From NCBI GenBank assembly GCA_002633005.1, contig NMRA01000368.1, forward strand, positions 234,166 through 298,165: a stretch of 64,000 nt of DNA, read 5' to 3'. Positions 3,368-32,460 of this stretch are shown here, one piece after another (position 1 is the stretch's first letter; each line of letters begins with the position of its first letter). The notes below the pieces were generated by a model. The model saw only the letters and a program-made list of their open reading frames with translations. It was not told where the DNA came from and made no database searches. Position numbers and translations under genes: made by a program. This DNA is from Phoronis australis (taxonomy: Eukaryota > Animalia > Phoronida).

Positions 3368-5366
3368 ACTATCATGCAGTATTAGCGATCACATTAGCTT
3401 TTTTCGCGAAATTCTTAACTCTATGGTATGGCATGCAGTCCAGGATACCGGAATTTCGATTCCCTGATCTCAGCAGAGATGACATACGTTAGGCTTAATT
3501 TGTTCGTTCATTATACATGTAAGTTGTGTTTTTAAAATGTCACGTTTAATTTTGGATTAAATTAGTTTGTTCAATATAAAGTTGCTACTAACATTTCTAT
3601 GTAAAGCGAGTCGAATTTTTTTTGAAAAACTTAGATGAAGATCAGACTAACGTACATGTATCTGGACCATAAAAGTACTGAAATATATATTTTAGATTAT
3701 TAGAAAAATTATGAAAAAGGACATCCATAATAAGACCAGTTTATTGTAAATGTCTAGATATTTATCAATGGTCGTTGCTGCAGTAGATTTGCCGGATAGC
3801 ACATTGTGTCATTTGTTGGGTATAGAGGAGAGGTCTTGCTATTGATTTCCATTATTTGTCGACGATTTTTTTATCACATGTCCGTTTTTTTGATGTAAAC
3901 ATACCTACACTATGAGTATAAGAATTATTAGTCCACGTACATGCCTCTGGTGCGTTGGTCACATCACGTGCCCTGTAGTGTAGCCCCAACGAACTCTTAA
4001 AGATAAACTCGAAAGGTTTGTCGTACAAAAATAAGAGCAATAAATTTGCATACCCCAAAAGACCATCTTTAGTCTAGCGCGACAACTGATTAACAGTGAA
4101 CAATCTTATGCCAGCCGCACACGACACGGCAACGGAAGTGCCTTACCCTGGCTTCACGGCATAGTCAACCTGTAGGTGGTGCTTCCCCATATGGAAACCC
4201 TCGGGTCTATTCCAAACCTCCAATTTTCCTTCGGTGGTGAATGTTGTTTGCACATAACTGGGCTTCAGTTACAAGAATGTCACGTGACTTTCAAATTGGC
4301 AAAACACACGTTACACTTATAACATTGAAACAAAACAAAACTACTTCAGTCATAAACCTTTTCAACTCTTTACGGGATTTAATTTTACTCAAATTCCAAT
4401 GGTGGAGCTGCAGCCCCGCCATATTGGACATGTGCCGGAATGTTGCAATGTGGCTATAGAAGTACATGTATTATTCAATAAACGAATACGTCAACAAGAG
4501 AACGGGAGACGGTCACGCGGAGGCTATGCATATACGTGTTGTGCCTGACTCCTTTAAAGAGTTCCCACCTTCCCACCATTCATAGTTTTTGAGATATCAG
4601 TTAGCTAATATGAAATGAATGCCATAAAATCTAGCTACGTAAGCATTTTGTATGCCAAAGCAGGCTGATCGATGTAGGTTTGTGTAGGTTTAAAGTCATT
4701 GTATGGGCGCAGCAATCCAAAGAGACGTGCTTTTTCTTTCAGTTGTATTGACGTCAGAACCCCGTAATTGCGACAAATAGGCCTACATGTAAAAGTTTTA
4801 TGCTAGTTGCAACAATACCAAAATCGAAACATAAAAGAGGTTATGCCAGTTGTAAAAACGCTATTCGGACGTCGCTCGACGGATTTCAATTGCATATCCA
4901 CTGCTTACAAGTTGATTGCTGGTCGGACTCGGCGGGGTTGAAAGTTTGTTGCATTGACGTTATTTCTACGTCGATATTATGAGGGACCCAACGTCGGATA
5001 GACGTCGTACATGTAAATCGCCGTTGATTGTTGGTTGTACATGTGTTCTAACTTTGCTTCCACGTAGATGTTTTGTCGGATCCGAAAAGGCACAGACTTA
5101 GCAAAAGGAAGTTGATTGTTGGTTGGCGTTGCTTCAACGTTCATTATTTTTCATTAATTATTTCAGGGTAGCACGCAGGAGTTTACGCTTAGCCAAAACA
5201 AAGACGTTTTTTAAATGGCGTTTCGTTTTAGATAGTATTCCACCCCGAGTAGCAAAATCAACGATAAAAGAACGCTTTATGGCTTGGCGCCCTGTTATTT
5301 CTTTGCATTTTGTATACGGCACTACATCCTGATATCTACCATTTTTAACGGGTGTCTTACTTTCAG

Positions 5367-5600
5367 GCTCTTGCACTTGACAAGTGATGAAGCAATTGCC
5401 GGGTAATGTCAAAACATTAACCGGAACCAAAAGAACCAAAACTCTAACAATGGCTGAATGCAGCCCCTCGCTGGATAACTGCAGAGTAGAAAATATAGAT
5501 GAAACTCAAGAATCTAAATGCACATACACCGCTGGTGAAGAACCATCACCAGCGCCAACAAACAGTAGAAAGAAGGAGGAGGTGAATGAGGACGAAACAG
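5367..5600 (+). CDS. First coding exon (MAECSPSLDNCRVENIDETQESK...EDET); an upstream non-coding exon is implied
   Basis: Acceptor tttcag ends at 5366; ATG at 5450 (alternative in-frame ATG at 5387); donor G|gtaacg at 5600/5601; acidic, low-complexity peptide. Confidence 0.7.
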
Positions 5601-8600
5601 GTAACGAATTGCAAGGCAGGTGATGTTATACGAATGTTCCGTTCGTTGAGTTCCTTTACAAGAAACTGAAAATATCAATTCAATCTTGAGTACGATCATC
5701 GCCTATAAGGCGAACATATCACGTGTACAAAGTGTCATCTGACATCCCTGTCAACCTCCCTCATCCTTCTTACCTCCTTCTCACTCCCTTCTAAAACCGG
5801 GTTTTTTGGCTGTTTTGGAGATGAATAGGTCAAGAGTATTATTGTGGGCGTAAGTACATGTATGGACTGAGTAATGAGTAATTTCACTGGTTATCTGTGT
5901 GAATAGACATATGTTTGTATAAATAAATCTTTTTCAGTGAGGCGTGGAGATATGTTGGAAATGGTTTATCCCTGCACGGTTAGCAGAAGGTCATGGGTTC
6001 GAGTCCCGGTCAGGGGCAGAAATCTTTTCGGACTTACATTCATTAGGTCACGTCACGTGACCAAAAGATGGCGGGTTGAACGGGATAAACTATTTCCAAC
6101 ATATGCAGCCGATTTCATAAATGTGGATTAACTTAAACCTGGTCTTCCTAAACCTGGTCTAATTTTAGACCTGACTTGCATTTCACCAACATGGTTTAAG
6201 AGTCTGAAAGCCTAGTTTTGCAGCTGGTTCAGTAAAACTGTTACTGTGTCAACCATATCACGTCTACTAGACAAAGTGTCATCTAATGTCAGAACAATTC
6301 TCGGACTCTTTACCGTCGGAGGTGTCCCCACCTCCATCCCTCTCAACCTCCCTGCTCCTTCTTTGCTCCCCCTCTCTCCATTATGAAACCGGGTAATGTG
6401 GCTGTTTGAAAATGAGTAGGTCAACAGCATTACGGATGGGTAAGTGTTGACTGAGTAATGAGTAATTTCACTGGTTATGTGTTGCTTTTTGAATTTGCTG
6501 GTTTGTCGGTGAAAACGTTTTTTCGATGTGAGAATCGTAAGTTAGGGCATATGTCTTGGGGGGAGGGGCAGCACCAGGATCACAAATGGGGTAGACGAGG
6601 AGATGATTTCACTGGCGGCTGTGGAAAGATATTGAAAATCACCAGGCATGGTATTTTGTGGACTCATTGTAAGCCTGGTACACCGATATGAAATGCCGAC
6701 TTGGATATACATTTTTCATGACCCTTTATTTGTCAATCCAACATAATATTTCAGGAGAATCTGAACATGGATCGTATAGGCAAGGGCTTTCTGATGCAAT
6801 CAATGGTCGAGTAATAAGTGGAGTGCATTCTCTCAGTATTTTTGACAACGTGGACAATCTCCAGATGGGGAACAACAATACTATGATTGAGTGTCAGGAG
6901 GAACCGGGAAATAGTGAGTACATGTGTTCACAAGAAAGATTTGAATTTACAGGACACATAAGATATGACACAGTCCGAAACTTCATACAGAAAGGGTAAA
7001 AGGCAGGAATTTCTTGCTTTCATGCAACACGAAAACGAAATATTTACTAAAAGTTATTTTAACCATCTTCTGATGGACTAATCAAAGTAAAAAATAAGGT
7101 GATTTTAGATAAAAGTCCAGCGCAATCAATCAAATACTTTCTCGAATTCTACCAGTGAAGCCAACCCTAGACGTTCACCTGACTGAGGACAAAACCTTAA
7201 TTCACAATGCACGCGGATATTTTCGTCCCTAATTCTTCCTGAAATGAATCCTGTTTGGTCTTCACTGATTAATTTTCCCATAACAGATTACTAAAAACGT
7301 TCAGCCACAGCCAATGATGTCATTTTTACGTTACATTTGGTAAACATACAATCTGTATTTTTAAATAATGATCACTTGTGCTTTGAAGATATAAGTAATC
7401 AGGTCCGTTTTCAATGTGCTTGATATTACTGAGCTTTAACTACACGTTAAACGCGAACGCGAACGTGGGTCGGAATTACTATGTCAAACCAATGACTTAT
7501 ACATTTCCGCGACAAGTCCTGTCACTCGTTTGGAAACAACGCGAAGACAACGAATCTCACGAAAGTGCAAAACGTGATTTTCAATTGTCCATTTATCATA
7601 AAAAGTCGTTTGATGCATGCAACTTTTTAAACGTCTTTTGAAAAATTACCAATAGTGAAGTGTAGAGCATGATTGTGTCCCACACAGTTGGATGTCTGAA
7701 ATATCATAGGAGGATCCAGAGGGTCAAGGAGATCCGAACTTCTTTTTACCCTTGATTTTGGAGAAATCAAATCTAAAAGTTTCAATCTTTTGACTTGAAC
7801 CCCCTTTTCAAAAAATCTTTGATCCGACCCTCCCTTTAAAAATCCTGGATCCGCTCTTGAATATGACCTTTGTTTGGGGGCCCTTCTCCCATTGCGGATT
7901 TTTTCAGAAAATCCAAGGAAAACAGTGGCAATAAGTGACACACATTTGCTGTCAAACACAGTAGCGTGTAGAGGTTTGATGATCTGTACTTAAATGCATG
8001 AGTCCTAGTACTAAGAAAGATGTTACATAAAGTTAAAGCTAAAGTAAACTAATCACTCCAAATTTCAAAAGGGATATGCGTAGTGACTGGAGGCTCCATC
8101 CCTGCCCGGGGCAGCAGCCCTGTCGCCCCCCTCCCCTCTTTCTGCCCTCCACTGCCAAAATATCTCTATCACGATAATATTCCAAGAAAGCAAATGAGAT
8201 GAATGGCTTGATTAAACTGTAATGTTAGAGTTAAACACAAATCTTTTTTCTCAGTGCAATTTTGCTCAAAATCAGTGTTGGTATCACAAAAATGACAGCT
8301 TAAATTTTTTGATCATTTGGATGTTGATTGTTTTCACGGGGGACAGAACATAATGTTGTCACCATGGTCATATTTAGTTCCTCGAGCTGCCACCACTGTT
8401 TAACGCAGTTGCCGGTAACAGTCAACTTTATGGATCCCTGAGGTCAGAATGACAGCATTATTCAATGGAAGTAACTGGTTCTGCTGAAATCTGGGACCAA
8501 TCCGCGACCCAAAAAACCTACTAGTCAATGCCGTGCCACAGTGACATCACCACAGTGTCGCTCACACGGTGGCTATCATTAGGTAACCCTTCTCATGGGC

Positions 8601-11600
8601 GGCGCAGAACTGAAAAAAGTTGGGCTATAGCCCTCCAGTCCCTTTTTATGGGCCGCCCATGCTTTTTCAGCGGCGTTCGCGTTTGACGTGAAGCTAAAAC
8701 TCACCAAAAGGAAACTCGACATTTTAGCAAATAAAGAATCAAAGAAATTAATGACCGACGTTAGTCCAAGCAATTCAAACATTTGACTGAAAAACCTTCA
8801 GAACCTACATAACGTTGTTTTTCATTTTTTCTCAAACAGCGTGAATTCTCTTTGTATACACTATAAAAGACCTCCAATTTTCCTTTCCCGCACACACCTT
8901 ATTACCTGAAGAAGAGTCTCTAAGGCAATATCAGATACTTCTTACAACTCATCACCATTGGTTTCATGTCTCTAGAAAGTTAAGTGCGAAACTCTTGGTT
9001 GGCAAACCTTGGCTCTTTTGACCTCAGGTCATAAGATATATCCTCCAACTGACTTTAGCTGCTGCAGGGAGCGTGCGTTGGCAACTGTTGTATCCCCTTC
9101 GCTTAAGTGTGGGTTTTGGTATTTGTACATAATTAGTAGTGTACTCAGACGGTGGATATTCATCCAGGTGAATAAATAGATGCAAAAAAAATATATTTTA
9201 CAACTTCTGTTGCCCAATTCTTAGTTCCATTTCTGAGCAGAGAATGTTATTTGAAGTATTCACTAGAAAGCGAGAAATGAAAAGTTTACATATCAATCAC
9301 GCCAAGCGATATTACGAGATCCTGACAGTAAAAGGCCCAGTTAGGTTTTCGTTCTTTGGGTAGGGAAACAAGGATAACTACAGGCTTATGTATACATATG
9401 AATGTAATTATATTTCAGATGAACTAAAAAAGGAGGACAGTAGCGGACAACCCTCCCATTGTACTACTAACACGCCTGGACGTGCGAATTCTTCTTGTGT
9501 CGCTGTTTTGCGTGACGTAAAGAACGCCCAGATAGGAAACTGTAACAAAATGATGGTTGCTGGTCAAATAAACAACGAAGACACAGAATACTTTAGGGCC
9601 CAACATGAACAAATTGGAAGTTCAAACCCAGACACGCCGTCTGGCCAGGTTTCATCAGACGGCAGCTCAGAGAGCACAATTAATGAAGGAATTAATAAAG
9701 GTAATGGCCCATGGACTGTATTTTGAAGGGTTCCAGCAAGGGCATTTCACAGTCTTATTATCGAAACACCACAGGTGTTACCTCTCAAGACCGACACTTT
9801 CAAGACATACACCTTCTTTAAATGAACAATGTTGTCATCATATACAATTGTCAGAGCAATCTTATCCAACAGTTCATGTGACACTGGTGACATAGTCATT
9901 TGGTTTTATGTTGCAAGAGTGTAGTCACTTTTGTGCAAACTGATTTTGGCTAAAACTACTGCAAGGTCTTACAGTAGGCAGACAAGCGCCTTTGCTACAT
10001 AGGGTATACCTTGTACAGAAAAGGAATCGTCTTTTGAGCAATGTCATGAACAATCAATGCAATGTTCTTCCAGAGTCACCATGGAATGTGGCTTACGTTA
10101 TTTTATTATCCGTCCATTGATGCTCCGTTCCTCAAATTTCTTTGTCTTGTAAACTGGCATGTTATTCATGGTTCCATGTACTTACATCGTCTTCTGCCAT
10201 CTGTAAGTTAACAAGTTAGTGGCTTATTGGTCCTGTAAAGTGTAAATTGGCCACGTTGGGTGTTGGCATATGAACAATGCGGATGGAGTGGCGTTATTGT
10301 GTGACCATAAGGAAGCCATGGTATTGCGTTTTAGGAACACTTAGACACCATAAATATCAGTGGATCTGTATTTGCCCATGTGGCTCACTTGCGCCCAAAC
10401 AGACGTTCACAGAATATTTGAACGAAATTGTCCCCTTAACTTTGAGAACAACTTACTGAGTTAATGAACCCACCAAGTGGATCGCAAGTTTCACGAATCA
10501 AGTAAGGAGTAGTACGGGACATGGGCTGCACATAATGGAGGGTTGGGGGGGGGGCTATGACCCCCTTTTATTTCAGTGCTGCGCCGCCCGCTGTCTACGC
10601 GGGGACTGGGGGGAGGGCATAACCCCAATTTTTCATTGATGCGCCGCCCTTGCTGGATACACGTGTAACTAAATGAAGTAGGAACTAAATGAAGTAGGCA
10701 TCGTGTCCATAAGACCTTTGCTTTAATATCAATGATCACCGACAGAATGATAAACACAACAAATTTGCAAGTTTGCCTAAATACAACATCTTTTTGGTTT
10801 CAGGTGCCAGTGATGGTTGTTCTGCGGAGCCCGAACCAACACACGATATCAAATTAAATGAATTGGTGACAGAAGCGATCGATGGTAATTTATCAATGTA
10901 CAAATGACACAGTTGACAATTACGGCGTAAACACGTTGTAGCTTTAAAAATATGACACATAACTAATCATTATCGATAGAAATTTAAAGGTACAGGAAAA
11001 ACCTATGTCACGTGGTAAATACTTTGCCGGTAGGCGTTTGAAATAACACAGTTTGACTGGAATGTAATTATGAGTTTATTGATCAAATGTTTAAATTTTC
11101 TCAAATAAATCGTAAAAATTCCCAAAGAAGGTTAATCTAATCAGTCTGTGATCACGTTTTCCCTTTCCCGTCGTTGTCATTGGATTCAACGTTACGTTTG
11201 TTGTCTGTGACGAGTTTCCTTTCTCTTGATCAAGCCATCCATTGTTCCAAGTAGTCTTCATTTGACAGAATGCTTCGGAAAAAAACATAAAGTTCAGTCC
11301 GTCAAAGATTAGATATGTTAACATGAATTCAGTCCATCGAATTCTATATACGATGTATCCTATTGAAATTCGGTCCATCGAATTTCTGCTACAATGCATC
11401 GGATTGAAATTCAGTCCATCCAATTTCTAACATTTGTGATATTTATGTAGCAATCCAGTGGCATCTCTTCAAGAAATATCTGCGATAACTCTATAGCTAT
11501 CTGGTTGCCACTCTTCAAGAAATATACCTTCTTGAATAGCTAACAGAATATTCATACTGAACAGATTAAATGTGGCCGAGATAGATTAAAACATAAAACC

Positions 11601-14600
11601 CCAAAACTTCCTCCAAACGCTACTCGTAGTTAAAAACAATTCTCGGAACAAAATCGTATGATTCCAAATAAGAACCCATGCCGTCGCCAAACATGGTAAC
11701 GGACAGCTACAGTTTTAAGTATTTTCTGATCAATGATAACAAGATTATTGTTGTTGCATGAAATGGCTCGCCCCAAAGTTGACCAGTTCCCGTGAATTTA
11801 AAGTTACATAACTCTGCTAGCATAACATGAACACATGGTCACAAATTTCGGTAAACAGCCAATACATTTAATTAATTACACATGCATTATTCGCATGCAC
11901 ATAATTAACTTTCTCATTCAAAACTTGCATTTGAGTTTATTTGGGTAAAAATCCATGAGTGCGCATCAGTAGATATAAGTGCAGCACATGTATGAAATCT
12001 TTAATAACCGATACTGCACTCAAATCAAGAAAAATGTATGCATGTTCTCATTTCGTGATGACTGGCCAACTAATCATTTTGGTCATGGTGACAACCTGTA
12101 CCTGAAGACACGTCTAAGGAAATAACGGAAATATGATTAACGTGGAAACAAAGAAAAATGTCAAAGGTTCTGTTCTAGGGTAGCTCGTACTCTGGACGAC
12201 ACAATTATCTCCCTAAAAAATTATGTTTTTGCTTTTTCAGACGCTGAACATTTAGTTGACAGTAGCTCGAGATTGCTGCAGCACATTGACAGTGACTCGC
12301 AAGGTTCGTATGGAGTTGTCGTGCACACATTATATCAATGCATAAAAATTTCTACTAACATTTTGGTGTGCAAACGCAGTTTTATTTGAAATAAAATTCG
12401 AGCACCATTTTGAACTGAAAGTAAAAAATAATGACCAATTTGTTATTCTGAGCCGTCGGTGCGGGGAACATGGGCTGCAGGAGATACGGGTCTGAGAACA
12501 GTAAGACGACCGCCTTAAGCATCTAACAAGAATCTAATTTTTCAATACCTTAAAAAACAGAGCATGTGATGTATGAGCTACACTCTTCAAGGCTAACCTT
12601 CTAGGGAAAAGAGTTGGTTACAAGTATGTAATGCAAATCCATATGGTTTTTGTTCCCAAATATCAATTTAAGCACATTAATGTGTCAATAAATAACATTC
12701 CTTTTATTGTTGATCAATCCTATAACATTTTCAAATTATTTGGTTGGGATGTTGCACAGAAATAGTGTCATATAGCTTCGTATAGATGTCTTTTTACATC
12801 TTCTACAAATCCATGTACTTATGAAGAACCAACAAACAAATGGTCGAAATCACACAACTTTAAAAGGGACTTACAACTAATCAAGTTACTGCTTAAGCTT
12901 GTGGGCTTCTGGTTAGAGTACGTATTGATGTGGTTAAGTTACATGTAGATAAATATTTCACTTGACATCAAATCATGTTTCAACGATTCAACGATCTTAA
13001 GCTCATTCTTGTCAATCACAGTTTTGGTAATTCTCGACCAGTTGCTTGTATATCACGAAAAGTGGATGAGTCATGAAAGTTAAAACGTAAAGTTGGAAGT
13101 TCATTTCTTCCAGAAGACTACAAGTAGGCCTATAGAATTTGTTGCACCAGTGTTACAGTTGAAGGAATGAATCTACACATTATCTAATGCATAACGTTTT
13201 GGTGCGTCAGGTAACGATTCTCCTGCTAAAGAACACTCAAACGAAGGAAGGATGCGGACTGTGGAAAGCACGATAATAGAGCAACAAAATGCTGAGAACT
13301 CTCAGCTTCGGAAAGAAATTATTGTATTGTCACGTGGAAACTGGAAGGTGATTTTTTTAAAAAGTGGCTGCATCGAAATAACCTTTGAATGCACGAGTTT
13401 GGAAGATGTTGAAGACCTTAGAAAACAACTGTTGGATGGTCATTTAGATGGAAACCTCAAAAGAGCTTTCATGACCGAAGAAGTAACGAAATTGACCGAG
13501 GGTGTTGACTTTGACATCAGCATCGAGGTTGTCGATATACGTACAAGTAAGTGCAGTCACAACAGGATACTCGTGTAGTGCTTTAGATGGCAAATTCATG
13601 ATGTAAATCGTTGGATAATTCAACTTTTCGCATTGCCATTCTCTGACAGGGCTTCATTTTCAGAAGTTTCAGAAATTGTACAATAAGCTTGTACTTGTCT
13701 GGCATGTACTGATAAAGCATTAGAACGGAATAGAGAGTAAAGAAATCGTCTCTTGGTGTCTTAGCAGCTGTAACTCTGAGATAAAATCCTTCACGTGCTT
13801 ATTGTAAACACTTCAGCACACAAGTTTGGAAATTTGTGTTCACTCTTCCGTGTTCTCCTTACTTTTGGTTTATTTAAAATAATCATGTTGCATTCCCTTT
13901 TTCAACAATATTACAATATGTCAACAAATTTTTGATGTGCCCAGTAATTTATTGCCACAGAGAGCGTGGTCTCAAAGTAAATGTTGCAAATTTCCCTGTT
14001 TTTGCCAAGTAGTGTCACCACGTGTGATGTGCTGGTGATTAACACTGGGGTGAGGGGTAAACACCAAATGTGTGAGACACTGTAGTAGCATAGAACCCCT
14101 GCTGTTAGGAAGCTCAATAAGAATCGCAATTATGCAAATTGTGGTTGGAGTGTCCAGCTTGCAGCTTTCTTGAAATGTGAAAATTTGGTGTTCTGGCTCC
14201 AAGTATGCCACGTTTGCCTGAAACCGAGAAGGTCCGAGCTCTTGAACAAGTTGATGTTGATCTTCCCAGAATGTATTAGGCACCTCCTGACTCAGGAGTG
14301 GAATGCCATCACCCAGCTACGAATCACCAGGCTAGTAAACAGCATGCGAAGAAGATCTGTCGCTGTATTGACTGCGAGTAGATTGTCAACCCAATACTGG
14401 GAAGACCACTGTTATCTATCAGTCAGATCATCACTATTGTCTATCAGTTGGTTGTTTAAAAAATAAAGTGATTAAGTGTTGCCTAATTGTCATTAGTTTT
14501 TAGTTCCATGGAACCAGCATTGAAATTGCTATTGAAAAAGATGAATGCTTTAACTTGAATACACATTTAGCTCCAACTGAATTTGCAACATTCACTTTGA

Positions 14601-17600
14601 GACCAAGCCTTCTTTGGCCGGGCAGAAGAGTAACTAATCATAATAACCATTTATTGACGGAAAGTGGTATCATTGGATAGGAGAATGACTGGGGTTTCTA
14701 TTGGTATGCAATATGATTTACTTAAAACAGAAATAATGAAAACACTGAAGAGTGAACACAAATTTCCGAACTTTTGGATATGTGTTTATTTTGTTGCCTA
14801 TACACGTACGTGCTCGAAATTAACTCGGCTCATTGGTCATGTCATAAATTGTGCCCCACGATACAGTGAGACGAATATCTCACTTTATCTGACAAGCGTA
14901 AATTCTTGCAGCATGCAGGCGAGCTGGGTTAAGTGCTTAGCCTATTATAATTCATAATTGCATTTCCTGGCAACAACCAATCTCTCTCGCTGGAACTCCC
15001 TAACCGTGTGTACTACATTTATTTCGTTTACTACCAACGTAAATAACAAGTCAGTCTGCATTTCGCTAGCGTTGAGTTGTAACCTGAGCTAAAGTTCACT
15101 CAAAGACGACAGGTCAGCCTGAGCAATCCTCAGCGCTTGTCCTAATTTCAGTACAATCAGCGTTGCTTTTTCGTAACGAGAGTCGTATAAAGGAGGTAGA
15201 CATGCATATCGGTTTTTCATATTCTTCTATAAAATGTGTAAAATTTATTGTTACAGGGTGTTAGATGTTTCGGAAATCCCGAGGAAACATGGAACAAGTT
15301 TTTGGGTCATCCATTGATCCAAAGAAAAATACCGTTTTTTTAATCCCTCTTCCAACAAATGCTGTCACGTGTTTTCAAAAACTTACCGTGGTCCCGTTCA
15401 TGGCACCAATAATTACTTAAAGGTGTAAATCTATTGTGTATGTATCTTACTGTACTTTTTGGATTTGCCAAATACGTAATATTCACTTCATAACCCTAGG
15501 AGGGCTTTGAAGTTCCTTTATATAAGATTTCAAATTGTACCATGATTTGGTTTGATCAATTCATGACAGAAAAAAATTCATCAATTGTATTGCCTCTACC
15601 GTCAAATAATGAATTGGGATCAATGCGTTCGAAGTTTTGCAAACATCACATTCTTCTTTTGGTCACCTCAGACTGAAAAGTATGCATGTAATGCTCCAGT
15701 GTTACCAGTGTGCATGGATAACTGTACAATTGTTCATTCTGACATAGATTTTACGTGTAGTGGTGTGAAAATTGGCAATTTGTGGTTAAAACGTATGTGC
15801 TATCGTGTGGGTTGTGTAGTCAGATTCCGTTCAAATGAGCTGAACCGTTTTGTAGGGTAATGGAATTTTCAAATTTTATCAAAATGACCACTTTGCAATT
15901 TTTCGAATTAATTAAAATGTTCACGGCGAAACGCAACTGAAGAATCAAAGCCTATGTTTATGAAAAAGTTTTTGAATTGTGAAAAAATTCTAAAATATAG
16001 TGTTAAGACAGAATTTTCTTCTACAAGTAAATTTGTTTTAGACGGGCATAAAACAGTACTAGGATGGCAAGGGATCGTACAATTTTAAAGTAAATGAGAG
16101 CTGGCTGTATGAATTGCTTTGTGAGAATGACTTTTTGCTGTGATGCCTTTGTACTGTTTCAGTTCACGTTGACGAAATTATGACCAAAGCAAAGGAAATA
16201 GAAGAAGGAATTTCGAGGTTGCATCAGAAAAAAGGCAATGTGATGGATCTATTGCCTAAAGCGGGAAAAATTGACTCCTGCACGGGTAAGTTCAATCTTT
16301 AGCCTGGTTATCGCTCCTCTCCAAAATTCACAGTGGCTGTATTTCACTATTTGCTAATGATGTTCCATAATCTCACTATTGCAGTTTACCTGGAATTCAC
16401 AGGAGGCTCAGTTTCTTCTCGCAGTGATTTTGTGTGTGTCCATGTATCCTCCCAGGACAATTTGTGACTCCACAGTAAAGATTTTTGAATCGATAGTATG
16501 AGTTGTTTACTCACCACACTGGTTCACAAAGGTTGCAAGAGATAAGAACTTAATTATACATGTACATATACATATATTCACTGCCTTGTACATCTAAGGT
16601 ACAGTGGGGTGTTCGGTTGACTAGTACCATCTCACCATAGCAGAGCTTAGAGAACTCGGATCCGGCGGTTAATCTGCCTCCTCTTGGTCATAGAAATGAC
16701 TTGGCAAGGTAGACTGGCCCTCCCAATAAGTGCACAGGCTGCTCCCCAATCACAAAACATTTTTATACTTTTATATTTTACTCCATGTTGATGTCCTCTG
16801 GATAACAGCAACGCATTGATGAATTCACTCTACGCAAATCCTGTGCTGTTCGTTCTTATTAAATAAGCAGAAATGAAGCGAGACGTAACAGGCTAGTGAT
16901 TTTCCAAATAAAGAAGTCAATCACTAAGGAACCTGACTGTATTTTTGGCTTGAACGAAGCCGACTGCACGATGCAAGTTGGAGTCAAACTAACATTACGG
17001 TTGTGAACTATCAGCCTAGATGTAAAGTGTATGACTTATATGCCAAGACAAAGGTCCCGGACACAAAAACAGCTGTTCCGTGCCCAAACTCAAAACAATT
17101 CCACCACGGGGGTTTGGTCTAGGACTACACAGAGTTTCAGGACGATCGGCCACGTCGTCTCGGCGCCTTAGTGGGTACTTAAAGAATTTTGCTTACCGGG
17201 TATTAAATTCACAGGATCGCTTCTCATGGTGCCTTCAAACTTTTGTTTCCTATTTTGTATCAAGACTACTCTTAAAATTCCTTGTGAACCGCCCGGGCGT
17301 TCTGCTTATCACAGTTCTTTTCTCATGAACACGCCGGATTACCCGCTGCAATTGTTTTTTTGTGTACCACCATGAATCTGTTCTCTCTGTATCATTCGTA
17401 CATGTAGTTGAAATTCTGAAAACTAGGGCAACCTCCCTGGGTGTGCACGGTCGCATTCTTGCTGCCCCATATCCCACACGAATATGCATGGTGTCATTTG
17501 TCTCCGAGGGTTTTCGTTGTTATTAGTGTTTTTATTTTAAGTGGCAGTTATTATCACACGTGCGTAAATGTAGCCGCACCAGCAGTCGTGGTGGTGGTAC

Positions 17601-20600
17601 TGATGCTTGTACCGTTGGTATTTTTAGATGATCAACTTAAGCAGCTTTCGGAGAAAGAGGAGAAATTGAAGAGTAATTACAAGAAACTCACAGAAATCAT
17701 CCAGAAGGAAGAAATAAAACAAAAACATGAAAGTATGTAGAAGCTATATTTGTTCCTTATACATGTATGTGTCCTTGGAGCATGTGTCAGTCTAAGAATC
17801 CTTCACAAAAAGAATTCATCCCCGAAGCTTGAAAAAACAAGCAGAATTTGAAATCATGTGACAATTACGTTTTTGTAAATGCATTTATGTCTCATTTCTG
17901 AAAAAATAGCATTGTTTTATCAAGCCATGGATATGTTCGCATGCTCTTCAAACTGGAACAATCCGTCTCGAATGGGTGGTTAACCTGAAACTGGCGCCTC
18001 TTTTTTGAAATTCCATATAATATGCAAATCCGCAGTTGCGAGTCTGATGTCTGTTATCGATGCTTTAACATAAATTGTGGGTTAATTTTTGATAAGTTTC
18101 TACTAGATATGTGTTAAGAGTAATTGTGAACGAGAACCGTTATGGAGGGACCCTGTTTTGTTTCCACTATATTGGCGATTTCTCGGTTAAGAGTTATATT
18201 GTTTGCAGGCCAATCTTCAGTTGATTACAGTTCCGAGAGTAACTCTAGGAAAGAAAATTTGCAGTTAATAGCACGAGTGAATCTTATTGAAAAGGGCGTT
18301 TTCGAGGAAGCAGGTTAGTATACGTTTCTTGTTAGAATGGAAATTTTCCCTTTTCAGATTGAAAAGTTACTTGCCGTATGACGCGTTTTGACACCCACGC
18401 GCCTTCTTGGGACAACTTTTTGACACATAGTTTTATCCAAAATAGTAATTTGGTACACGGTGTATTCAGTTACCAATCCTTTACACGGCGATCGTTATTC
18501 CATAACAGTGAAACTATGATACTGGTCAATTTCAATAAAAGCAAGTGCTATCAACAGCAAATAATCAAGTTTGCATTTCAGAGCGACAACTTGAAAGGTT
18601 GGAGGCGAGGGAAGCAGAATTGGCAGCATCATTCAGAGATCGTTCTGCGACTGGAGGATCGTCATCAGTATGTGAAATACTTCAGCAACTGGGAGATGTT
18701 TACAAAGAACGAGGTTTGCTGACTAAGTCCACACAACACATCGCAACAGCTTCTGCATTATATAACGCGGCTTTCGTTGGTGAAAAGGAAGCTGATTCTG
18801 TTCGGAATCTTGAAATGCTGTTGAGAGAAAACGAAACCGCTTTCTGCCGAATTTTATCCTTATCAGATGGTATGCTACCAGTTGAGTTCAGGTCAAAGGT
18901 TATTGACAGGTTAGAGACTCTTAGACTTGGCGTGACCTCTGAAAGTAAACAGTTACTGGACAACTTTTCGGAAAATCTTAAATTTGATGCACCACACGAT
19001 GAAAGAACTGATATAGAAAAGGCGTTTGTGATCGAGACCAGAAAGCTCTCTCAACGTGTAAGCGATGAAATAGCATCTTTGTGTGAAGAGTTCTTGTCAA
19101 AAAGTTGCGAAATACTGGGTCCACCACCTCACGAATATGCTGTCATTGCCTTTGGGTCCTTGGCAAGGGGCGATATTACACCAAGTTCAAGTAGGCCTAT
19201 TAAACTGGGTATTCTTTGTGAAAACGATTGCAGAGATGTCGAGTATTTTAAAAACATGATGAATCTTGTCCACGTATTTGGCCATAATGTGGGAGAAACA
19301 GATGTTAGTACTTTGAACATCAAATCACTGAACGACAATGTTACACTAGGTCGTGTAACAACTCCCGGATTCTCACTCGACAGTTCTTTTCCTCATTCGG
19401 ACGCAACAGGGCAGGAAAGAAACACATTAATTGCGACTCCCACCCAAATGACAGAGATACTTGACTATGGCTCATCGTCATCACGTGGTCATGAGTTCAT
19501 TGATGTCGTTCAAATCCATGGTAGCGCTGGCGGCGATTCACTATTTAAGGAATTTGAGTACATGAAATCTAAAAAATCGGCAAGCAGAAAAGGAAATCTC
19601 TTGTCGGAAATTCAAAATTGCAAAGGAGACATGTTTGTCGTAAGCCTTTTTAAACCACTCTTTCGTCTGGAAAACAACAATGTGTGGGAAAGGCTTAATG
19701 AAATGAGATCCAAGGCATTTTTGTCAGACGAAGCCACGCACAATTTACAAGTGGCGTTATCGATAAGCGCGCTCTTCAGACTGCACGGACAGACTAGTGA
19801 CGGGGAGCAGAATGAATGGCACACTGTAAGCCAGCTCTTATCAATTCTTGCGAGCGGTAACTCTGAACAAGGAGAAGCGCCGAAGTACAGCAAATACAAC
19901 CCTGTCATTATCAGATACTGTTGTACGGCTTTGCCTTTTTTTGCCTTTTTGTGCAAACAGGGTTCTGATTTTGAGCTGGACACCGAAATAAAAAAACAGA
20001 AGTTCTGCGATGAGTTTCTATTAAAAATGGGTGGGGTACTCATATTGTCACAGGTCAGTGAAGACAAAGGTGAGCATAGTATTGAAGAGTATCTTAAATC
20101 CTTAAGTGTCGCAGGTGAGGCTAGCAGTGATACTATGGAGGAGATAGCAACGGAATGGTTGAACCGAATAACTGGGACAGACCACAGCAATACCTCTTCC
20201 CAGGACTCGGCAGACGTTGGGTTTTCAAGTAGTTTTGACGATGCCGGGTGTCATATACTAGCGCCATGTTTGTACATTATGGGACAAATGTACAGTAAAA
20301 TGGGTAAGCATCAATTGGCCTTGAATTATTACCACAAATCACTGATTCTCTGGAAAAGACTTTATGGTGAACGCGATAGGCACGAAGTTGCTGCATGTTT
20401 CAATGGCATCGGATGTGCACACGTGAGTTTGGGCGATTACAACCAGGCCCTAAAGTTCCTTAAGGAATCCTTGGATGTGACGAAGAGAATCACTGGAAAC
20501 AGAGATGACAGCAAAATTGCTCTATGCTTAAATAACATGGGGAACGTTTACTTGGACAGGGGAGATTACAAATCCGCTCTGGAATGTTACAATAACTCGC

Positions 20601-21526
20601 TGAGTATGATGAAACGACTTCCTGGAGATGAAAATCGAGCTGATATGGCGTCTTGCTTGAACAACATGGGTAACTTGTGTAAAACGTTGGGCCAGCACGA
20701 TTTAGCCATGGAACACCTTGAGGAGTCGTTGAGGTTAATGCGAAGAAAGTACGGTGAAGTAGATCACCCGGAAGTTGCATCGGCATTGAACAATATTGCA
20801 AGTGTATACCTGGCTAAGGGCAAATACCAAGTTGCATTGGAATCTTTTAAAAAGGCTTTGGCAATGAGGAAGAGAATACTTGGAGATGTTGAAGATTCTG
20901 ACATTGCATCATCTATGAATAACATAGGTGGTGCGTACTATGAAATGGGAAACTACAATGAAGCTTTAACATACTTAAAACAATCACTGAAAACTTTAAA
21001 GAAAATAATTGAAAAAAAAGATCACCCTGACATCGCGCACTGTTTGAGTAACATAGGAAGTGTGTATAGTAAAACGAATCAATACGAAAAAGCTTTGGGA
21101 TATTTCAAAGAATCATTGGCTATGTTGAGAAAGATCCATGGTGATGCTCATCCAGATGTTGCGTCATTTTTGAATAATATTGGGAATGTGTACAGTCGGA
21201 TGGGGAATTACGGAAGCGCGCTGAAGAACTACAAAGATGCACTGACGATCTGGCAGAAGGTCCATGGAGATAATTACCATCCTAACATGGTCACGTGCTT
21301 ACAGAATATGTCGGCTATGTGTGCAGGACTCGACAAAGTTGATCTAGCCAAGCAGTATGCAAGAGACTCGCACTATGTTAGGAACAAACTTGAGTCTGGT
21401 GGACATAAGGTGGATGTTAATTCAAGACTAGCAAAGGGTAATTTGAATGCAGCTTCTTCCTCAAGTTCGTTTTTACCTTTCACAGTAAACCAAATAGGAC
21501 ATCCTCTAAGGTACTGGCGGTGTTAG
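5450..21526 (+). CDS. Spliced gene, about 1449 aa: 2x RHIM-like motif - TRADD-N-like domain - coiled coil - DUF294-like (pseudo)nucleotidyltransferase - 9x TPR. join(5450-5600,6755-6913,9419-9700,10804-10884,12241-12303,13211-13546,16163-16285,17628-17732,18209-18313,18582-21526)
   Basis: Every exon is bounded by a pyrimidine-rich ...ag acceptor and a gt donor (gtaacg, gtgagt, gtaatg, gtaatt, gttcgt, gtaagt, gtaagt, gtatgt, gttagt). All junctions are phase 1 and join into one open 4350-nt frame. ATG context is aacaATGG. The small exons are less certain than the large ones. Confidence 0.8.
5727..6478 (+). repeat. Diverged direct duplication of about 170 bp in intron 1 (5727-5894 and about 6271-6478)
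   Basis: Shared blocks acaaagtgtcatct, catccct.tcaacctccct, aaaccggg, gactgagtaatgagtaatttcactggttat. Confidence 0.75.
5940..6016 (+). mobile_element. Degenerate tRNA-derived SINE head
   Basis: B-box GGTTCGAGTCC at 5996-6006 with T-arm-like context; no intact cloverleaf. Confidence 0.4.
6755..6913 (+). CDS. Exon 2 with RHIM-like motif 1 (LSIFDNVDNLQMGNNNTMI)
   Basis: Acceptor atttcag, donor A|gtgagt; 159 nt symmetric phase-1 exon; core LQMG at 6859-6870. Confidence 0.8.
9419..9700 (+). CDS. Exon 3 with RHIM-like motif 2 (VAVLRDVKNAQIGNCNKMMV)
   Basis: Acceptor tatttcag, donor G|gtaatg; 282 nt phase 1-1; core AQIG at 9526-9537. Confidence 0.8.
10804..10884 (+). CDS. Exon 4 (GASDGCSAEPEPTHDIKLNELVTEAID), linker
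   Basis: tttttggtttcag acceptor, G|gtaatt donor, 81 nt open in phase 1. Confidence 0.7.
11290..11429. repeat. Minisatellite, about 4 copies of a 35-40-bp unit (gaaattcagtccatcgaatt...)
   Basis: Recurring ttcagtccatc core at about 11293, 11328, 11368 and 11411. Confidence 0.75.
12241..12303 (+). CDS. Exon 5 (DAEHLVDSSSRLLQHIDSDSQ), linker
   Basis: Strong acceptor tttttgctttttcag, donor G|gttcgt, 63 nt open in phase 1. Confidence 0.65.
13211..13546 (+). CDS. Exon 6, TRADD-N-like domain (WKVIFLKSGCIEITFECTSLEDVEDLRKQLLDGHLDGNLKRAFMTEEV...DFDISIEV)
   Basis: 336 nt phase 1-1, donor A|gtaagt. The pattern G[SC]hxhxhxCxSLxxhxxL...GxL...hTEE..h.h.h resembles the TRADD-like N-terminal domain I recall from invertebrate death-fold and NLR proteins. 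Confidence 0.75.
13955..14615 (+). mobile_element. Internally deleted Tc1-like DNA transposon in intron 6
   Basis: Inverted repeats tggtctcaaagtaaatgttgcaaatt (13967-13992) and aatttgcaacattcactttgagacca (14580-14605). Internal peptide LLTQEWNAITQLRITRLVNSMRRRSVAVLTA matches the Tc1 transposase C-terminus (EEW..I.Q..I..L..SM.RR..AV). Confidence 0.75.
16163..16285 (+). CDS. Exon 7, helical/coiled coil (IHVDEIMTKAKEIEEGISRLHQKK...)
   Basis: tgtttcag acceptor, G|gtaagt donor, 123 nt phase 1-1. Confidence 0.75.
17628..17732 (+). CDS. Exon 8, coiled coil (DDQLKQLSEKEEKLKSNYKKLTEIIQKEEIKQKHE)
   Basis: tttttag acceptor, A|gtatgt donor, 105 nt phase 1-1, heptad-like E/K-rich peptide. Confidence 0.78.
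18209..18313 (+). CDS. Exon 9 (SQSSVDYSSESNSRKENLQLIARVNLIEKGVFEEA)
   Basis: gtttgcag acceptor, G|gttagt donor, 105 nt phase 1-1. Confidence 0.7.
18582..21526 (+). CDS. Large terminal exon: helical region, DUF294-like NTase fold (about 19110-19500), DUF294_C-like helices (about 19650-19820), nine 42-43-aa TPRs (about 20258-21380)
   Basis: Uninterrupted frame of about 980 codons; acceptor ttgcatttcag ends at 18581; motif GPPPHEYAVIAFGSLAR...LGIL; repeats of type HPDVASxLNNIGxVYxxxGxYxxALxxxKxSLxMxKKI. Confidence 0.93.
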
Positions 21527-23619: not shown

Positions 23620-26600
23620 GAGCAATTCCATATAAAAACCAGATGGTGGGCTATAATATATATGCAAAATCACCATTTTTTTTGAAACTTAGCACATCAG
23701 CTGGCCATGTCAAAGAAGCCTGAGCCTGATTTTTTAAGAGTTTTTGAGTTTTCTGAACCCTTTTTACGACCACTTTGTACTTTTTCTAAAAAATAGCAAA
23801 TAAAAGTAGGTGACTTTTTGTCAGCAACAACACATCATCGCTTCACGCTATTGAAAAAATAACTATATAGCACAAAGAAGAAAGAATAACATACAAGAAA
23901 AATTAGTTCGGATGGATTTATTGATTTTTGATGTCTTCCCATTTTAGCCTACAAAAATGTCATTTTCACTGTTTATTATTAAGGCTATTTTTACGCATTT
24001 TTATCGCTCTCCCAAATCTATATCGGATTCTTTTGGAACATGAGTTAACTTCCGTCTGTTACTGCTGTCTTTGTTCAGCCAAACGCAAGAATAAAAAATT
24101 TTGTCTCTTTTTACATAACTCACTTACACACTTTTCTGCCAATCTGTGACTGTCAGTTAGATTAAAAGACTCTAGGAGGAGCTACTCGATTGAGTAATTA
24201 TCTGTCGACCAAGATGCCAAATAGAACAAATATCATTCGTTTTGCTACATCAGTGACGAAGGAGATCACGGGAAGCTGTATGAGAGATTTTTTCTTCGCG
24301 GATTTTCAGTTTTGCTGGTGCAAAAATAAAAATCTATTATAGGATTACAGAACTCAAAAAAGTCAATTTTAATGTACTGTTGAGTTAATAATATAACCCC
24401 CATCACCATCTCATACTTCAGAGAAGCTGGTTTTATTCTTATTAAGGGTGCCCATTCCCCCTTGCTTGGTCAGTTTTTGAACTCCGTAATGGACTAAGAA
24501 TCCCACGCACTACCTGCAGTGCATGCTGGTCCATGTTCAGACCTCCTGGACATGTCCCTGTATATGCGCTTGAAAAAGTCAACTCAAACTATATGCAAAG
24601 TTCGTACTAAAACTAATCAAGATCTTCGAGATCACAAGTGAAAAGAGAACGGTGGATACGACCAGAAGTGTCGTGTTATGGGACACACAAAGGGTCACGC
24701 AATGCTTCTTGTACTACACAAAAGCGGCCGAGCATGGTGGCAGTGCGCCAATGGAATTTGCAGTTTCAGAAAAATAACAGATACGGATATTTACGATTGA
24801 AAACATAATACTTTCAGTTACCGGCTTTCCAAACCAGTATTTAAACAATTGGGTGTTGTTGCGACTTACCAGCTAAAAGTTTCATTATATGTAAATTCCG
24901 TTGATGCGGCGGACTCAAAACCACAGTTTTTTGAAAGTATGCTAGATTTAGTGTATGATGCATTTCCAAAAACACTTCAAAAAATCGCAAAATACGTCAA
25001 ATCCATCCCTAAACGGGAACATGTCATTGTTTCTTTAATAGAAAGCTATTTAACAAATCCAATAAAAATCCGTCAAAGAACTTAGAAGTAAAAGAGGAAA
25101 ACAAAAAAATGAAATTTCCACTAGGGGGCACAGATTCATTGGAAAGTCATCGTCGTCCGTTGTTAACTTCACACAAGTACACTTACTAAAATTAATCAAG
25201 ATACTGCAGTGGGTTTAGGAGATACAGCTATGGGCGCAAAAATCAAAAATGCCACAGTAGTCGATGTCGTTGGAAAATCATCATTAACCGTCCTCTTCAC
25301 ACTAAGAACGTATATGCTAATTTTCAAAATTATGCTTAGAGTGGTTTGGTTGGCAGAGCGGCGGACGCCAAAAACTGACTAGAAAACAATAAAAGTGGCC
25401 CCTAGATGGCGTAAAATATGTCAAATCCTCCAAAAACACCGTTTCTGTAATAGAAAGCTGTTTAGCAAATTTCATAAAAATCCATTAAGGAACTTCAGAG
25501 AAACAGGGGAAAACGGAAAACATGAAATTGCCACTAGGGGGCACAACGCTTGTTGGATCCGTCTGAAAAATGTCTGCGTCCGCTGTCAACTTCATATCAA
25601 TACATTATTGCTAAATTCAATATAGACCCTGCAATGGGTTTAGTAGAAACAGCCATGGGCGCTACAAAAAACAAAACTGCCACTAGGAGGAGTCAAAGTA
25701 GTCAAAGTCGTCGGAAGGTTATCGTCAACCCTTCTCTTCACACTAAGAACATATATGCCAATTTCCACAATCATTCTACGGATGGTTTCTTTGATAGAGG
25801 GGCAGACTCGAAAACAGTAAAAATGGCCACTGGATGGAACAGAATACCTCAAATACATCCGAAAATGGGAGGATAACGCCATCTCCCTAATAGATGGTTA
25901 CATGTATGTGCCAAATTTCATGAAAATCCGTTGAGCTTTGAAGATACAGAGGTAACAAAATGTATAAAACTAGGATTGCCACTAGGGAGCACACCAGTTG
26001 TTGGATCCGTCCTAAATTTGTCGTCATCTGTCAGGTGAACTCATAAAAACCCGTGTTTTATTCAGAAACTGATGAGGTGCACATCTGAATACGACTGACC
26101 GACAAGTCAGAGATGACTGCATGGCAAAAAGTACCGCACTGAATAAGTGGAAAATTATGATCAACTGCCATTACAATTTTAAAGGGAAGTGAACTGTATT
26201 GTCATTATTTGAGTCGTGGGGTATAATCATGAATGGAGCTTATTTCCATACTTAGAAAATATTTTGACGTAAATATTAAAGTACAAATTACGGCAAGCAA
26301 TCACCTCAGGAATGGTCGCCATCATTGCTCTGGCATAATCTACTACTGTAGCTTCAATGGCGATCCGAGCAGACTAGTGGAATGGCAAATCTGGTGACAA
26401 TTTCACCAGCTGTCACAAGTCATATGTACTAAAGATGTGTATAAAGATGGGTCACCTTTTGTACAAGTATGGTAATACTTTTTCATGGTCTTTCGGTATA
26501 AAGATGGGTCACACCATTGAACCATTTGAATAAATATGGAACACAATTTTCAGATTTGCAATATATAACATGTTTGCAATTTCCAAAGCCCAGCAGCCCA

Positions 26601-30800: not shown

Positions 30801-30963
30801 GACTAGTACGTGCAGTTACGACACCTGACAATGTCACCTTCACGGACTTCCGGCATTGTTTGGCTAGCGCGCGTTTGGTTGTTGGTATTAGTGTTTTGCA
30901 GGCGATAAACTGAAAGGCGTATGAATTTCTACTTTGCACAGCTTTGTGATTAGCACATGTAAT

Positions 30964-31842
30964 ATATATAGATTATTACATGGCGAAGTCGTTATCCCCC
31001 GTTATCTAGAGCCCGAGTGGATTTTGGAGAATTATCGCCCGAGGGGCGTTAGCCCCGAGGGTGATAATTCTCCAAAATCCACGAGGGCTCTAGATAAGGG
31101 GGATAACGGCTGAGAACATGTAATAATCTATTTATACCACATACTAAACGAGAAACATTGCAATGAATCGATTTACCTTTTCTGACTCTCCACGGCTTTG
31201 TAACTACTTTCTATGTCAGAGGCCCGGGGTCGGAGGTCGTGACCTTTTAAGAAAAGCCGAGCTATTTTTGTCAAATAATGCTTATACTCAAAACCAATTG
31301 GAAATTAAAACAAAATAGAAATGAAGTGAATCTCTAAATTAAGGTTAAGCAACTATTATAACTTAGAACACGTTTTTTACACGCTAAGCTTCGACCGGGA
31401 AATTATCGTCTGCTAAAGTAGGTTACCACTGGTAACTGAATATAATTCTCAAGTCAATGATCCTGACGACACGATACCCGCATTCAAACTGGAGATCGGT
31501 GATTTACAAGTAAGAGGACATGAGAGAAAAATTTCACTGAATTAAGATATCATTTTTATGGAAATTATGTGTCTTATTTTTCGTAACGTATAAGTACAGT
31601 ACAATGCGGTTTGTTGAACGTGCGATTATTGCGCGTGCTCATTTAAGTACTCTATTTTCACTCTTGATGACGTCAGTCGCTGCGTGGTGTAGTGGTTAAA
31701 GACGGCGATCAGCAATACCAAGGTCCCGGGTTCGACTCCGTTCTCGGTTTCCCGCCAAATCGTTATCTCACTAGTGAGATAACTTTATGGGTTATTACAC
31801 GGTTTTATCTGCCATTTGACGCTAATATTGTGGTATAATAAA
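30964..31842. mobile_element. Non-autonomous element with a palindromic left end of about 170 bp (30964-31136) and short inverted motif tataccaca...tgtggtata; single-arm copy at about 29128-29213
   Basis: Arms tagattattacatg...ggattttggagaattatc and gataattctccaaaatcc...catgtaataatcta around a cgttag loop. Confidence 0.7.
31676..31747 (+). pseudogene. tRNA-like / SINE-head sequence (not a functional tRNA)
   Basis: A-box TGGTGTAGTGG and B-box GGTTCGACTCC at tRNA spacing, but the acceptor and T stems do not pair. Confidence 0.5.
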
Positions 31843-32068
31843 AATTACGTACTCGGTGTTCTTAACCAGCCGTGTCGTAACACATTCCAGCTCATGCTGT
31901 ACGTAGTTTATGAATTAAACGTGACATTTATCACTGATAGGACTTCACTTAATATTCATTTTGTTGAAACCATCGAATGCGGGGGATGTCGAAAACACAT
32001 AATCAAAGCTTGAAAACCCGCTGACTTTTAAGCAAAAAACGATTTCAAATATTTTTAACAAGAAAGTG

Positions 32069-32460
32069 TAAGGTCAACTGAATGGGCAATTAAACGTGAA
32101 ATAATTAGATTATTCCTTGTGTTTCGGACAACAAACCTGAAAATTGTACAATTTGTTTTTTATAGCAACGTATATCAAAATGTATTAGAGTTAAATCTTC
32201 ACCGATTACAAAATACATGTAGGTGATTGAACGTGTCTTTCAATTCCTCGAAATCGCCTTTTTGTCGGTGCCACTGGAGACGTGTCAAACGGTAATTGTG
32301 AGCACTTAAATCACTTAATATGTAATCTTTGCGCGACTAAAGTCTGGTGAAAACCGTTGAATGACACAGAATAGTAGGTAAAATGTCTCACTAAATTTCA
32401 CTGTAAAATTTTAGTAAAAATTATTTTTTAAAAACTCGTAACTTATGCCGCTGTTCCCAA
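32069..32460 (+). repeat. Dispersed repeat of about 400 bp; second copy at about 49151-49556
   Basis: Colinear blocks ctgaatggg, tagcaacgt..tcaaaatgtat, gttaaatcttcac, ttgtcggtgcc, aattgtgagcac, ctaaatttcac, aaactcgtaacttat.ccgctgt. Confidence 0.75.

Follow-up and report, generated by a model that had tools for sequence, protein, structure and literature searches.

A predicted Phoronis australis protein with RHIM-like motifs ahead of a TRADD-N-like domain, a probable pseudo-nucleotidyltransferase and a TPR array

Gene structure and domain order

The window analyzed here is a stretch of 64,000 nucleotides from the phoronid Phoronis australis (assembly GCA_002633005.1, contig NMRA01000368.1, positions 234,166 to 298,165 of the forward strand), and all coordinates given below refer to it. 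An earlier note, made from the sequence alone, had drawn attention to two peptides in this window that resemble RHIM amyloid motifs. These peptides belong to a predicted gene of nine exons that extends from 5450 to 21526 on the + strand, with 1408 codons open and no stop or frameshift; all eight of its introns are GT-AG and phase 1. The predicted product consists of a putatively disordered head containing the motifs, a TRADD-N-like domain, a GlnE/DrrA-like nucleotidyltransferase (DUF294) and eight TPR units, in this order. The exons of the model, together with two candidate extra exons, are the following:

5450..5600, + strand: exon 1, the predicted first coding exon, with an ATG at 5450 and a putatively disordered acidic head; based on splice signals and open frame
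6755..6913, + strand: exon 2, 159 nt, AG...GT, phase 1-1; holds RHIM-like motif 1 (6832-6888)
9419..9700, + strand: exon 3, 282 nt, AG...GT, phase 1-1; holds RHIM-like motif 2 (9499-9558)
10804..10884, + strand: exon 4, an acidic linker, phase 1-1
12241..12303, + strand: predicted exon 5, a short linker, phase 1-1; based on splice signals and open frame only
13211..13546, + strand: exon 6, TRADD-N-like domain, phase 1-1
15700 or 15709 (acceptor)..15792, + strand: candidate extra exon encoding a degenerate RHIM-like motif, the third, phase 1-1, from a relaxed intron scan
16163..16285, + strand: candidate extra exon encoding a helical-looking peptide, phase 1-1, with the top splice scores of the intron scan
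17628..17732, + strand: exon 7, a likely coiled coil, phase 1-1
18209..18313, + strand: exon 8, a linker, phase 1-1
18582..21526, + strand: exon 9, the last, with a helical region, a DUF294/GlnE-DrrA-like nucleotidyltransferase fold and then eight TPR units

No Pfam match was obtained for 16 of the 17 other open reading frames (ORFs) of the window. Exon 6 scored 0.94 against a TRADD-like_N cluster of the Atlas, in which 54% of the members carry PF20694. Against Pfam PF20694 itself, the E value was 0.086 and the score 13.1, below the cut-off of 23.7, and a TRADD-N profile from lancelet proteins matched with an E value of 2.6e-7. The exon also has a G-C turn at the position of the small-Ser/Cys turn of the TRADD-N superfamily, a variant that is permitted according to PMC8195603. 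Judged by profile match and turn, exon 6 has the sequence features expected of a member of the TRADD-N superfamily. The single-sequence model of the domain, for which an RRM/ACT-like fold would be expected, was poor (pLDDT, the predicted local distance difference test, 49; best fold-search Z 4.0), and word-index homolog searches with the TRADD-N exon and with the enzyme region, which are weak negatives, found nothing.

The TPR array of exon 9 comprises eight units of 42-43 aa (20252-21284; Pfam TPR), and the enzyme region preceding it matches DUF294 with a Pfam E value of 0.007 and an Atlas score of 0.95. A model of the DUF294 region built from 48 sequences reached a pLDDT of 79.9. Its four significant Foldseek matches were GlnE adenylyltransferase domains and DrrA (E values between 2e-5 and 4e-4), with TM-scores that are low (0.25-0.34 by query), and the region had no match in the PDB by sequence. 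The nucleotidyltransferase G-S motif is retained, at 19154. The metal-binding Asp/Glu columns read Ser (19190) and Lys (19202), accompanied by a two-residue insertion; the Asp and Glu following the G-S motif are kept in 47 of 47 aligned relatives, in which a third Asp, Gly in the window, is also invariant, and S-D-h-[ED] is retained in 126 of the 129 relatives with a recognizable motif. The region thus has a Pol-beta-type fold with its G-S motif and lacks the metal-binding D-x-E. Because both the Asp/Glu pair and the third Asp are replaced, the domain is most likely a pseudoenzyme, and an active nucleotidyltransferase was rejected in view of the Ser/Lys replacement versus all 47 relatives. Neither a NACHT nor an NB-ARC ATPase is present among the Pfam matches listed for the exons (for exon 9, the best 25 of 45 families). 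Elsewhere in the window, at 51703-52048, lie the degraded remains of a TPR segment, split over two frames and 69% alike to 20340-20628; they are a paralog remnant.

The RHIM-like motifs

Direct translation of the + strand confirmed both peptides exactly as first described, at 6832-6888 and 9499-9558, with core tetrads LQMG (motif 1) and AQIG (motif 2). The tally of two motifs holds for these, but it overlooked a third candidate in the possible exon ending at 15792, whose tetrad is VKIG (15765-15776). This third motif is placed downstream of the TRADD-N exon; the splice scores of its exon are comparable to those of the model exons, and the reading frame remains open.

The two motif exons had been singled out as symmetric. 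They are indeed phase 1 at both ends and have lengths that are multiples of 3, but so are all seven internal exons of the model phase 1-1; symmetry is therefore not particular to the motif exons and was ruled out as their distinguishing trait. The motifs had been described as hydrophobic islands in disordered acidic and Ser-rich sequence: S, E, N, G and D abound in the first 260 residues, and the motifs stand out there as local hydrophobic islands. Composition and hydropathy of the flanks fit disorder.

Q-h-G-x-x-N-x-h, a post hoc pattern drawn up after the motifs had been seen, has three occurrences when all six frames of the window are counted, versus a mean of 0.59 expected; three were reached by 5 of 300 simulations. 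Within the first 260 aa of the model it occurs twice, a number reached in 0 of 20,000 shuffles. The core Q-h-G by itself shows no enrichment across the six frames (47 versus 52.7 expected).

All three tetrads, LQMG, AQIG and VKIG, are off the core consensus (V/I)-Q-(V/I/L/C)-G given in PMC9444067; that such deviating cores might set partner specificity had been suggested in the earlier note. On the C-terminal side of the core, where RHIMs have a conserved Gly followed by Asn-x-apolar (PMC4262963), motif 1 reads G-N-N-N-T-M and motif 2 G-N-C-N-K-M, and motif 3 lacks this feature. A literature search for a RHIM with AQIG, LQMG or VKIG found none. According to PMC12119088, LQIG is a natural tetrad that is functional in RIPK3, and RIPK3 variants with TQIG and VQSG gave no activation of NF-kB, while all variants supported ZBP1-dependent death.

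Profiles built from the motifs were compared with the 177,635 sequences of the PDB. The two-motif profile gave two matches, the best of which (E 0.52) was the RHIM stretch of a viral ribonucleotide-reductase-like protein that we take to be M45. With a profile of the three window motifs, RHIM stretches made up four of the top five of seven matches (E 0.15-0.39), and with a profile of two window motifs and one motif of the lancelet protein P0024 (see below), all four matches were RHIM stretches (E 0.1-0.52). The PDB support lies in this ranking; the individual matches are non-significant.

Profiles made from lancelet motifs only are independent of the window. Both placed the frame of motif 1 first among 2160 stop-to-stop pieces (E 0.005 and 0.0085) and the third-motif candidate second (E 0.2 and 0.32); the frame of motif 2 came fourth (E 0.33) with one of them and was outside the 11 matches listed with the other. 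Window motifs and lancelet heads were also aligned in 35 comparisons, each with 1000 shuffles. The score of motif 1 against a P0024 motif was reached by none of the shuffles, and that of motif 3 against a motif of P0044, another lancelet protein, by 2 of the 1000.

Lancelet relatives

As relatives, we used the best 150 of 587 matches to the enzyme region. Of 20 that were looked up, the 16 named eukaryotic ones are lancelet proteins, with about 30% identity. According to a profile built from three of them, four of the 150 relatives carry TRADD-N. Two of these, P0032 and P0038 (XP_002605446.1), have a CARD in front (28 of the 150 were scanned for this domain), and the other two, P0024 (Branchiostoma floridae XP_035692194.1) and P0044 (XP_078621836.1), have RHIM-like motifs in front. 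P0024 contains three canonical tetrads, and one of its motifs scores 19.6 bits (E 6.5e-4) on the Pfam RHIM family PF12721, which has a cut-off of 20 bits. P0044 contains two RHIM-like modules, one with IQIG and one degenerate. In both, motifs, TRADD-N, nucleotidyltransferase and TPR are found in one annotated protein. A module profile run over the 150 relatives had no match outside P0024 and P0044, and a word-index search with the motif profile, a weak negative, returned only P0024 itself.

This context in lancelet relatives is the strongest support for a RHIM-type reading. The resemblance to the RHIM pattern claimed in the earlier note is upheld by lancelet context and by PDB ranking, better for motif 1, and is opposed by Pfam and by the tetrad consensus. 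By formal criteria, the window motifs are RHIM-like rather than RHIMs. The evidence is much stronger for motif 1, where a RHIM call is reasonable, than for motif 2, where it is weaker.

Some further features of these proteins were observed. The motifs of both P0024 (320-355 and 376-411) and P0044 (297-332 and 362-397) reach upstream beyond the RHIM core by about 15 residues, with a second conserved strand, I-x-x-x-x-x-V-V-h, and motif 1 of the window has a similar strand; this may point to a beta-arch unit longer than the Pfam RHIM model. Residues 601-705 of P0044, behind its two RHIM-like modules and between TRADD-N and the nucleotidyltransferase, form an IRF DNA-binding domain (Pfam E 1.7e-18), and its enzyme motif is S-E-L-E, not S-D-L-E.

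Transcription of the predicted gene

At 92%, the window was compared with three raw-read RNA runs (X1, X2 and X3) and a contig set bearing the same species label, and at 80% with the three runs; about a fifth of each run was covered. The bins of exons 2, 6, 7, 8 and 9 show sense-only coverage in X1 and X2; X3 has no reads in the bins of exons 2, 6, 7 and 8 and few on exon 9. Exon 1 has low sense coverage in X1 and X2 (bin 5000-5483). Exon 2 is covered by 11-14 sense reads in X1 and 7-10 in X2, with depths from bin means of 8.9, 5.7 and 0 in X1, X2 and X3, respectively, and exon 4 by five and seven sense reads at 10813-10826 in X1 and X2. The bin of the candidate exon 15700-15792 is sense-only in X1 and X2 (estimated depths of 2.6 and 5.7); for the candidate at 16163-16285, the estimated depths are 0.6, 0.7 and 0.3 in the three runs. 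RNA joints connect exon 7 to exon 8 (8+1 reads, 14 unmatched letters) and exon 8 to exon 9 (4+5 reads, 16 unmatched letters).

Among the 40 rows listed of 511, two of the ten listed differences between reads and window in the region of motif 1 fall within its 24-nt core; one of them is silent and the other changes LQMG to LQIG. The remaining eight listed exon-2 differences alter seven flanking residues and spare N-x-Q-x-G-N-N-N.

Origin of the motif exons and exchange of heads

The suggestion that the two motif exons derive from an exon duplication was not borne out. Their nucleotide identity is 58% inside the motif versus 27% and 20% in the flanks, their lengths differ, and when the intron edges are included, the alignment of the two exons is at chance level (151 of 500 shuffles were as good). 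A recent exon duplication was rejected on the basis of this flank identity and chance-level alignment; an old one may have occurred.

Trees of the enzyme core were based on 98 rows, of which 30 were hand-picked for a quick LG+G4 tree and an approximately unbiased (AU) test. The enzyme domain of the window forms a long branch (1.84-2.08 changes per column) outside a lancelet clade in which CARD, RHIM and other heads are mixed. A single clade of the three RHIM-bearing enzyme domains was rejected (AU p 0.012), for the 30 picked rows and the quick tree and with the caveat of the long branch. Heads appear to have been swapped or lost repeatedly, and repeated swapping would, we infer, be allowed by the phase-1 exons.

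Comparison with known systems

ZBP1, with its tandem RHIMs, had been put forward as comparator; it was rejected as the closest model because the window protein has a TRADD-N/pseudo-nucleotidyltransferase/TPR body, which had been overlooked. The lancelet proteins XP_002605446.1 and XP_019613615.1 contain CARD, FN3, TRADD-N (DEDD2), nucleotidyltransferase, HEPN and TPR (Kaur et al. 2021, PMC8195603, source data of Figure 4). The window protein shares with them the order of TRADD-N, nucleotidyltransferase region and TPR array, an N-terminal interaction module and the G-C/G-S turn in TRADD-N. In contrast to them, it carries RHIM-like motifs in a putatively disordered head where they have CARD and FN3, it has lost the Asp/Glu pair, and the identity in the enzyme region is about 30%.

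Many lancelet RHIM proteins, with the RHIM where CARD-type domains usually sit, have been described, as have tandem RHIMs in invertebrates (Kajava et al. 2014, PMC4262963; compared by its text). As in those proteins and in P0024 and P0044, two or three RHIM-like motifs lie here in putatively disordered sequence at the CARD-type position of an immune architecture. The domain order of P0024 is that of the window protein, but P0024 has canonical VQIG/VQLG tetrads and has kept S-D-L-E. P0044 has its additional IRF domain, absent from the window model, and the window enzyme domain does not group with those of P0024 and P0044 in the AU test described above.

With the vertebrate RHIMs (PF12721: RIPK1, RIPK3, ZBP1 and TRIF), the window motifs share the layout h-x-x-(N/D)-h-x-N-h-Q-h-G-x-x-N-x-h, and the best PDB profile matches are fibril stretches of RIPK1 and RIPK3 along with the viral protein. 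They differ by their off-consensus tetrads and the lack of a Pfam match, and the window protein has no kinase, Z-alpha, TIR or death domain. The GlnE adenylyltransferase domains (PDB 3k7d and 1v4a) and DrrA (6yx5) are the top four Foldseek matches and share the G-S motif, but unlike them the window domain has Ser/Lys plus a two-residue insertion at the metal-binding pair.

NLR/STAND receptors resemble the window protein in combining an N-terminal signalling module with a C-terminal repeat array, here the motif head and the eight TPR units; ligand sensing is putative. The fungal NWD2/HET-s amyloid-motif NLRs (PMC4262963) likewise have an N-terminal amyloid-type motif, a central nucleotide-fold domain and C-terminal repeats. 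Unlike these, the window protein has a Pol-beta-type pseudo-nucleotidyltransferase at its centre instead of a NACHT/NB-ARC ATPase, TRADD-N is added, and no adjacent effector gene was found within the window. By analogy, the protein would work like an amyloid-motif NLR, yet it is not a member of that class, the STAND domain being absent.

Proposed mechanism and alternative explanations

We consider it moderately likely that the motifs are RHIM-type amyloid tags that form the output end of a predicted immune receptor, cytoplasmic and NLR-like. On this view, a ligand would be bound by the TPR array; TRADD-N and the pseudoenzyme region would pass on a change in conformation and bring receptor molecules together. 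Once clustered, the motifs would seed a cross-beta fibril, and this would recruit other proteins with RHIMs from the same animal, much as a CARD would through domain pairing. The principal tag would be motif 1; motifs 2 and 3 would serve as optional cassettes that leave the frame unchanged. We infer the ligand as well as the clustering, the fibril and the partner.

A number of results weigh against this receptor model. The Pfam RHIM scan suggested with the original claim gave no match for any window motif at E values up to 10. Single motifs had no match in the PDB, and no profile match there was better than E 0.1, with non-RHIM chains among the matches. Alignments of motif 2 with lancelet heads were non-significant (53/1000 and 591/1000 shuffles), and one control pair among the 35 comparisons reached 4/1000, near the value obtained for motif 3. 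Among the 150 relatives, the strict pattern shows no enrichment (one found versus 1.06 expected). Regarding the RNA data, the estimated depth of exon 3 is 0.3, 0 and 0 in X1, X2 and X3, i.e., there are almost no reads, so that motif 2 is skipped, absent or less than 80% alike in the transcribed copy. Among the joints listed, none touches any motif exon or anything upstream of exon 7, and the reads derive from a diverged allele or paralog with at least 10 differences from the window in exon 2.

That the resemblance arose by chance in Asn/Gly-rich disordered sequence would agree with the missing Pfam match, with the post hoc nature of the pattern and with the protein alignment of the two motif exons, which was equalled by 81 of 5000 shuffles. 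However, the independent lancelet profiles put motif 1 first of all 2160 pieces, the PDB matches are enriched for RHIM stretches, and relatives carry the motif at the same place; we regard chance as highly improbable. It is very unlikely, too, that the motif exons form a separate short transcript encoding a stand-alone RHIM adaptor apart from the TPR gene. They share strand, phase and two RNA runs with that gene, and in P0024 and P0044 motifs of this kind stand in a single annotated protein with TRADD-N, nucleotidyltransferase and TPR, even if the lack of a listed joint upstream of exon 7 speaks for two transcripts.

The remaining two alternatives we think unlikely. The protein might be a decoy or dampener, in which the dead enzyme and the off-consensus tetrads serve to join and cap fibrils or complexes of active paralogs and no signal is started. 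The replacement of catalytic residues that 126 of 129 relatives keep and the deviation of all three tetrads would fit this role, and an inhibitor with RHIM-like motifs, Rudra/Pirk, has been described (PMC4262963). Against it, the full array of eight TPR units and the TRADD-N domain are retained as in the CARD-bearing relatives, and the transcribed copy has LQIG, which signalled in RIPK3 according to PMC12119088. Alternatively, the motifs might be what is left of decaying RHIM exons in a copy of the gene that evolves fast, having lost the ability to form fibrils, with motif 2 perhaps an unused exon. This is a rather doubtful scenario: the 1408 codons have remained free of stops and frameshifts, and the listed exon-2 differences change seven flanking residues and spare N-x-Q-x-G-N-N-N. 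In its favour are the long branch of 1.84-2.08 changes per column, the loss of the active site, the near absence of reads on the motif-2 exon and the fragment at 51703-52048, which indicates that gene copies do decay in this window.

The receptor model can be extended to a class of amyloid-signalling, NLR-like animal receptors without a STAND ATPase, which we would put forward as a speculative possibility that is more likely wrong. In such a class, a GlnE/DrrA-like pseudo-nucleotidyltransferase would act as the hub between a TPR sensor and RHIM-type cassette exons. Splicing would pick the tags (1, 2 and 3) and hence the partners that are seeded, and shuffling of phase-1 exons would exchange CARD and RHIM heads on one and the same body.

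Relation to previous work

Invertebrate RHIM proteins were catalogued in 2014 (PMC4262963), and the TRADD-N/nucleotidyltransferase/TPR body in 2021 (PMC8195603). In our literature search, in which part of the papers were judged by title and the start of the abstract, no paper was found that joins a RHIM with this body. The term RHIM is absent from 12 of the 13 supplements of PMC8195603, with file 4 covered in part and file 13 outside; both may bear on novelty.

What makes the locus informative is its receptor body together with the exchange of CARD and RHIM, and the duplication and symmetry arguments add little. CARD or RHIM-like motifs on the same body provide a natural pair for testing whether a folded death-fold domain and an amyloid tag can replace each other as outputs. 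The off-consensus tetrads would extend the range of sequences known for RHIMs and demonstrate that motifs of this kind escape Pfam. In addition, an inactive enzyme at the hub would allow the scaffold role to be told apart from the catalytic one in a large animal family that is unstudied.

Other features of the window

Runs of same-frame ORFs interrupted by stops, on both strands and without Pfam matches, occupy 40950-46707 and are possibly decayed transposon-borne genes. Repeats elsewhere in the window comprise tandem arrays of about 410 bases (25029-26033) and about 330 bases (58759-59452), an inverted repeat at 30957-31142, and a dispersed one at 32036-32454 and 49121-49549. Intron 1 of the predicted gene contains a direct repeat (5743-5898 and 6335-6482, 78% identical), and between its copies lies a repeat near 5950-6220 with many RNA reads on both strands, which gives the impression of a tRNA-derived short interspersed element (SINE) candidate.

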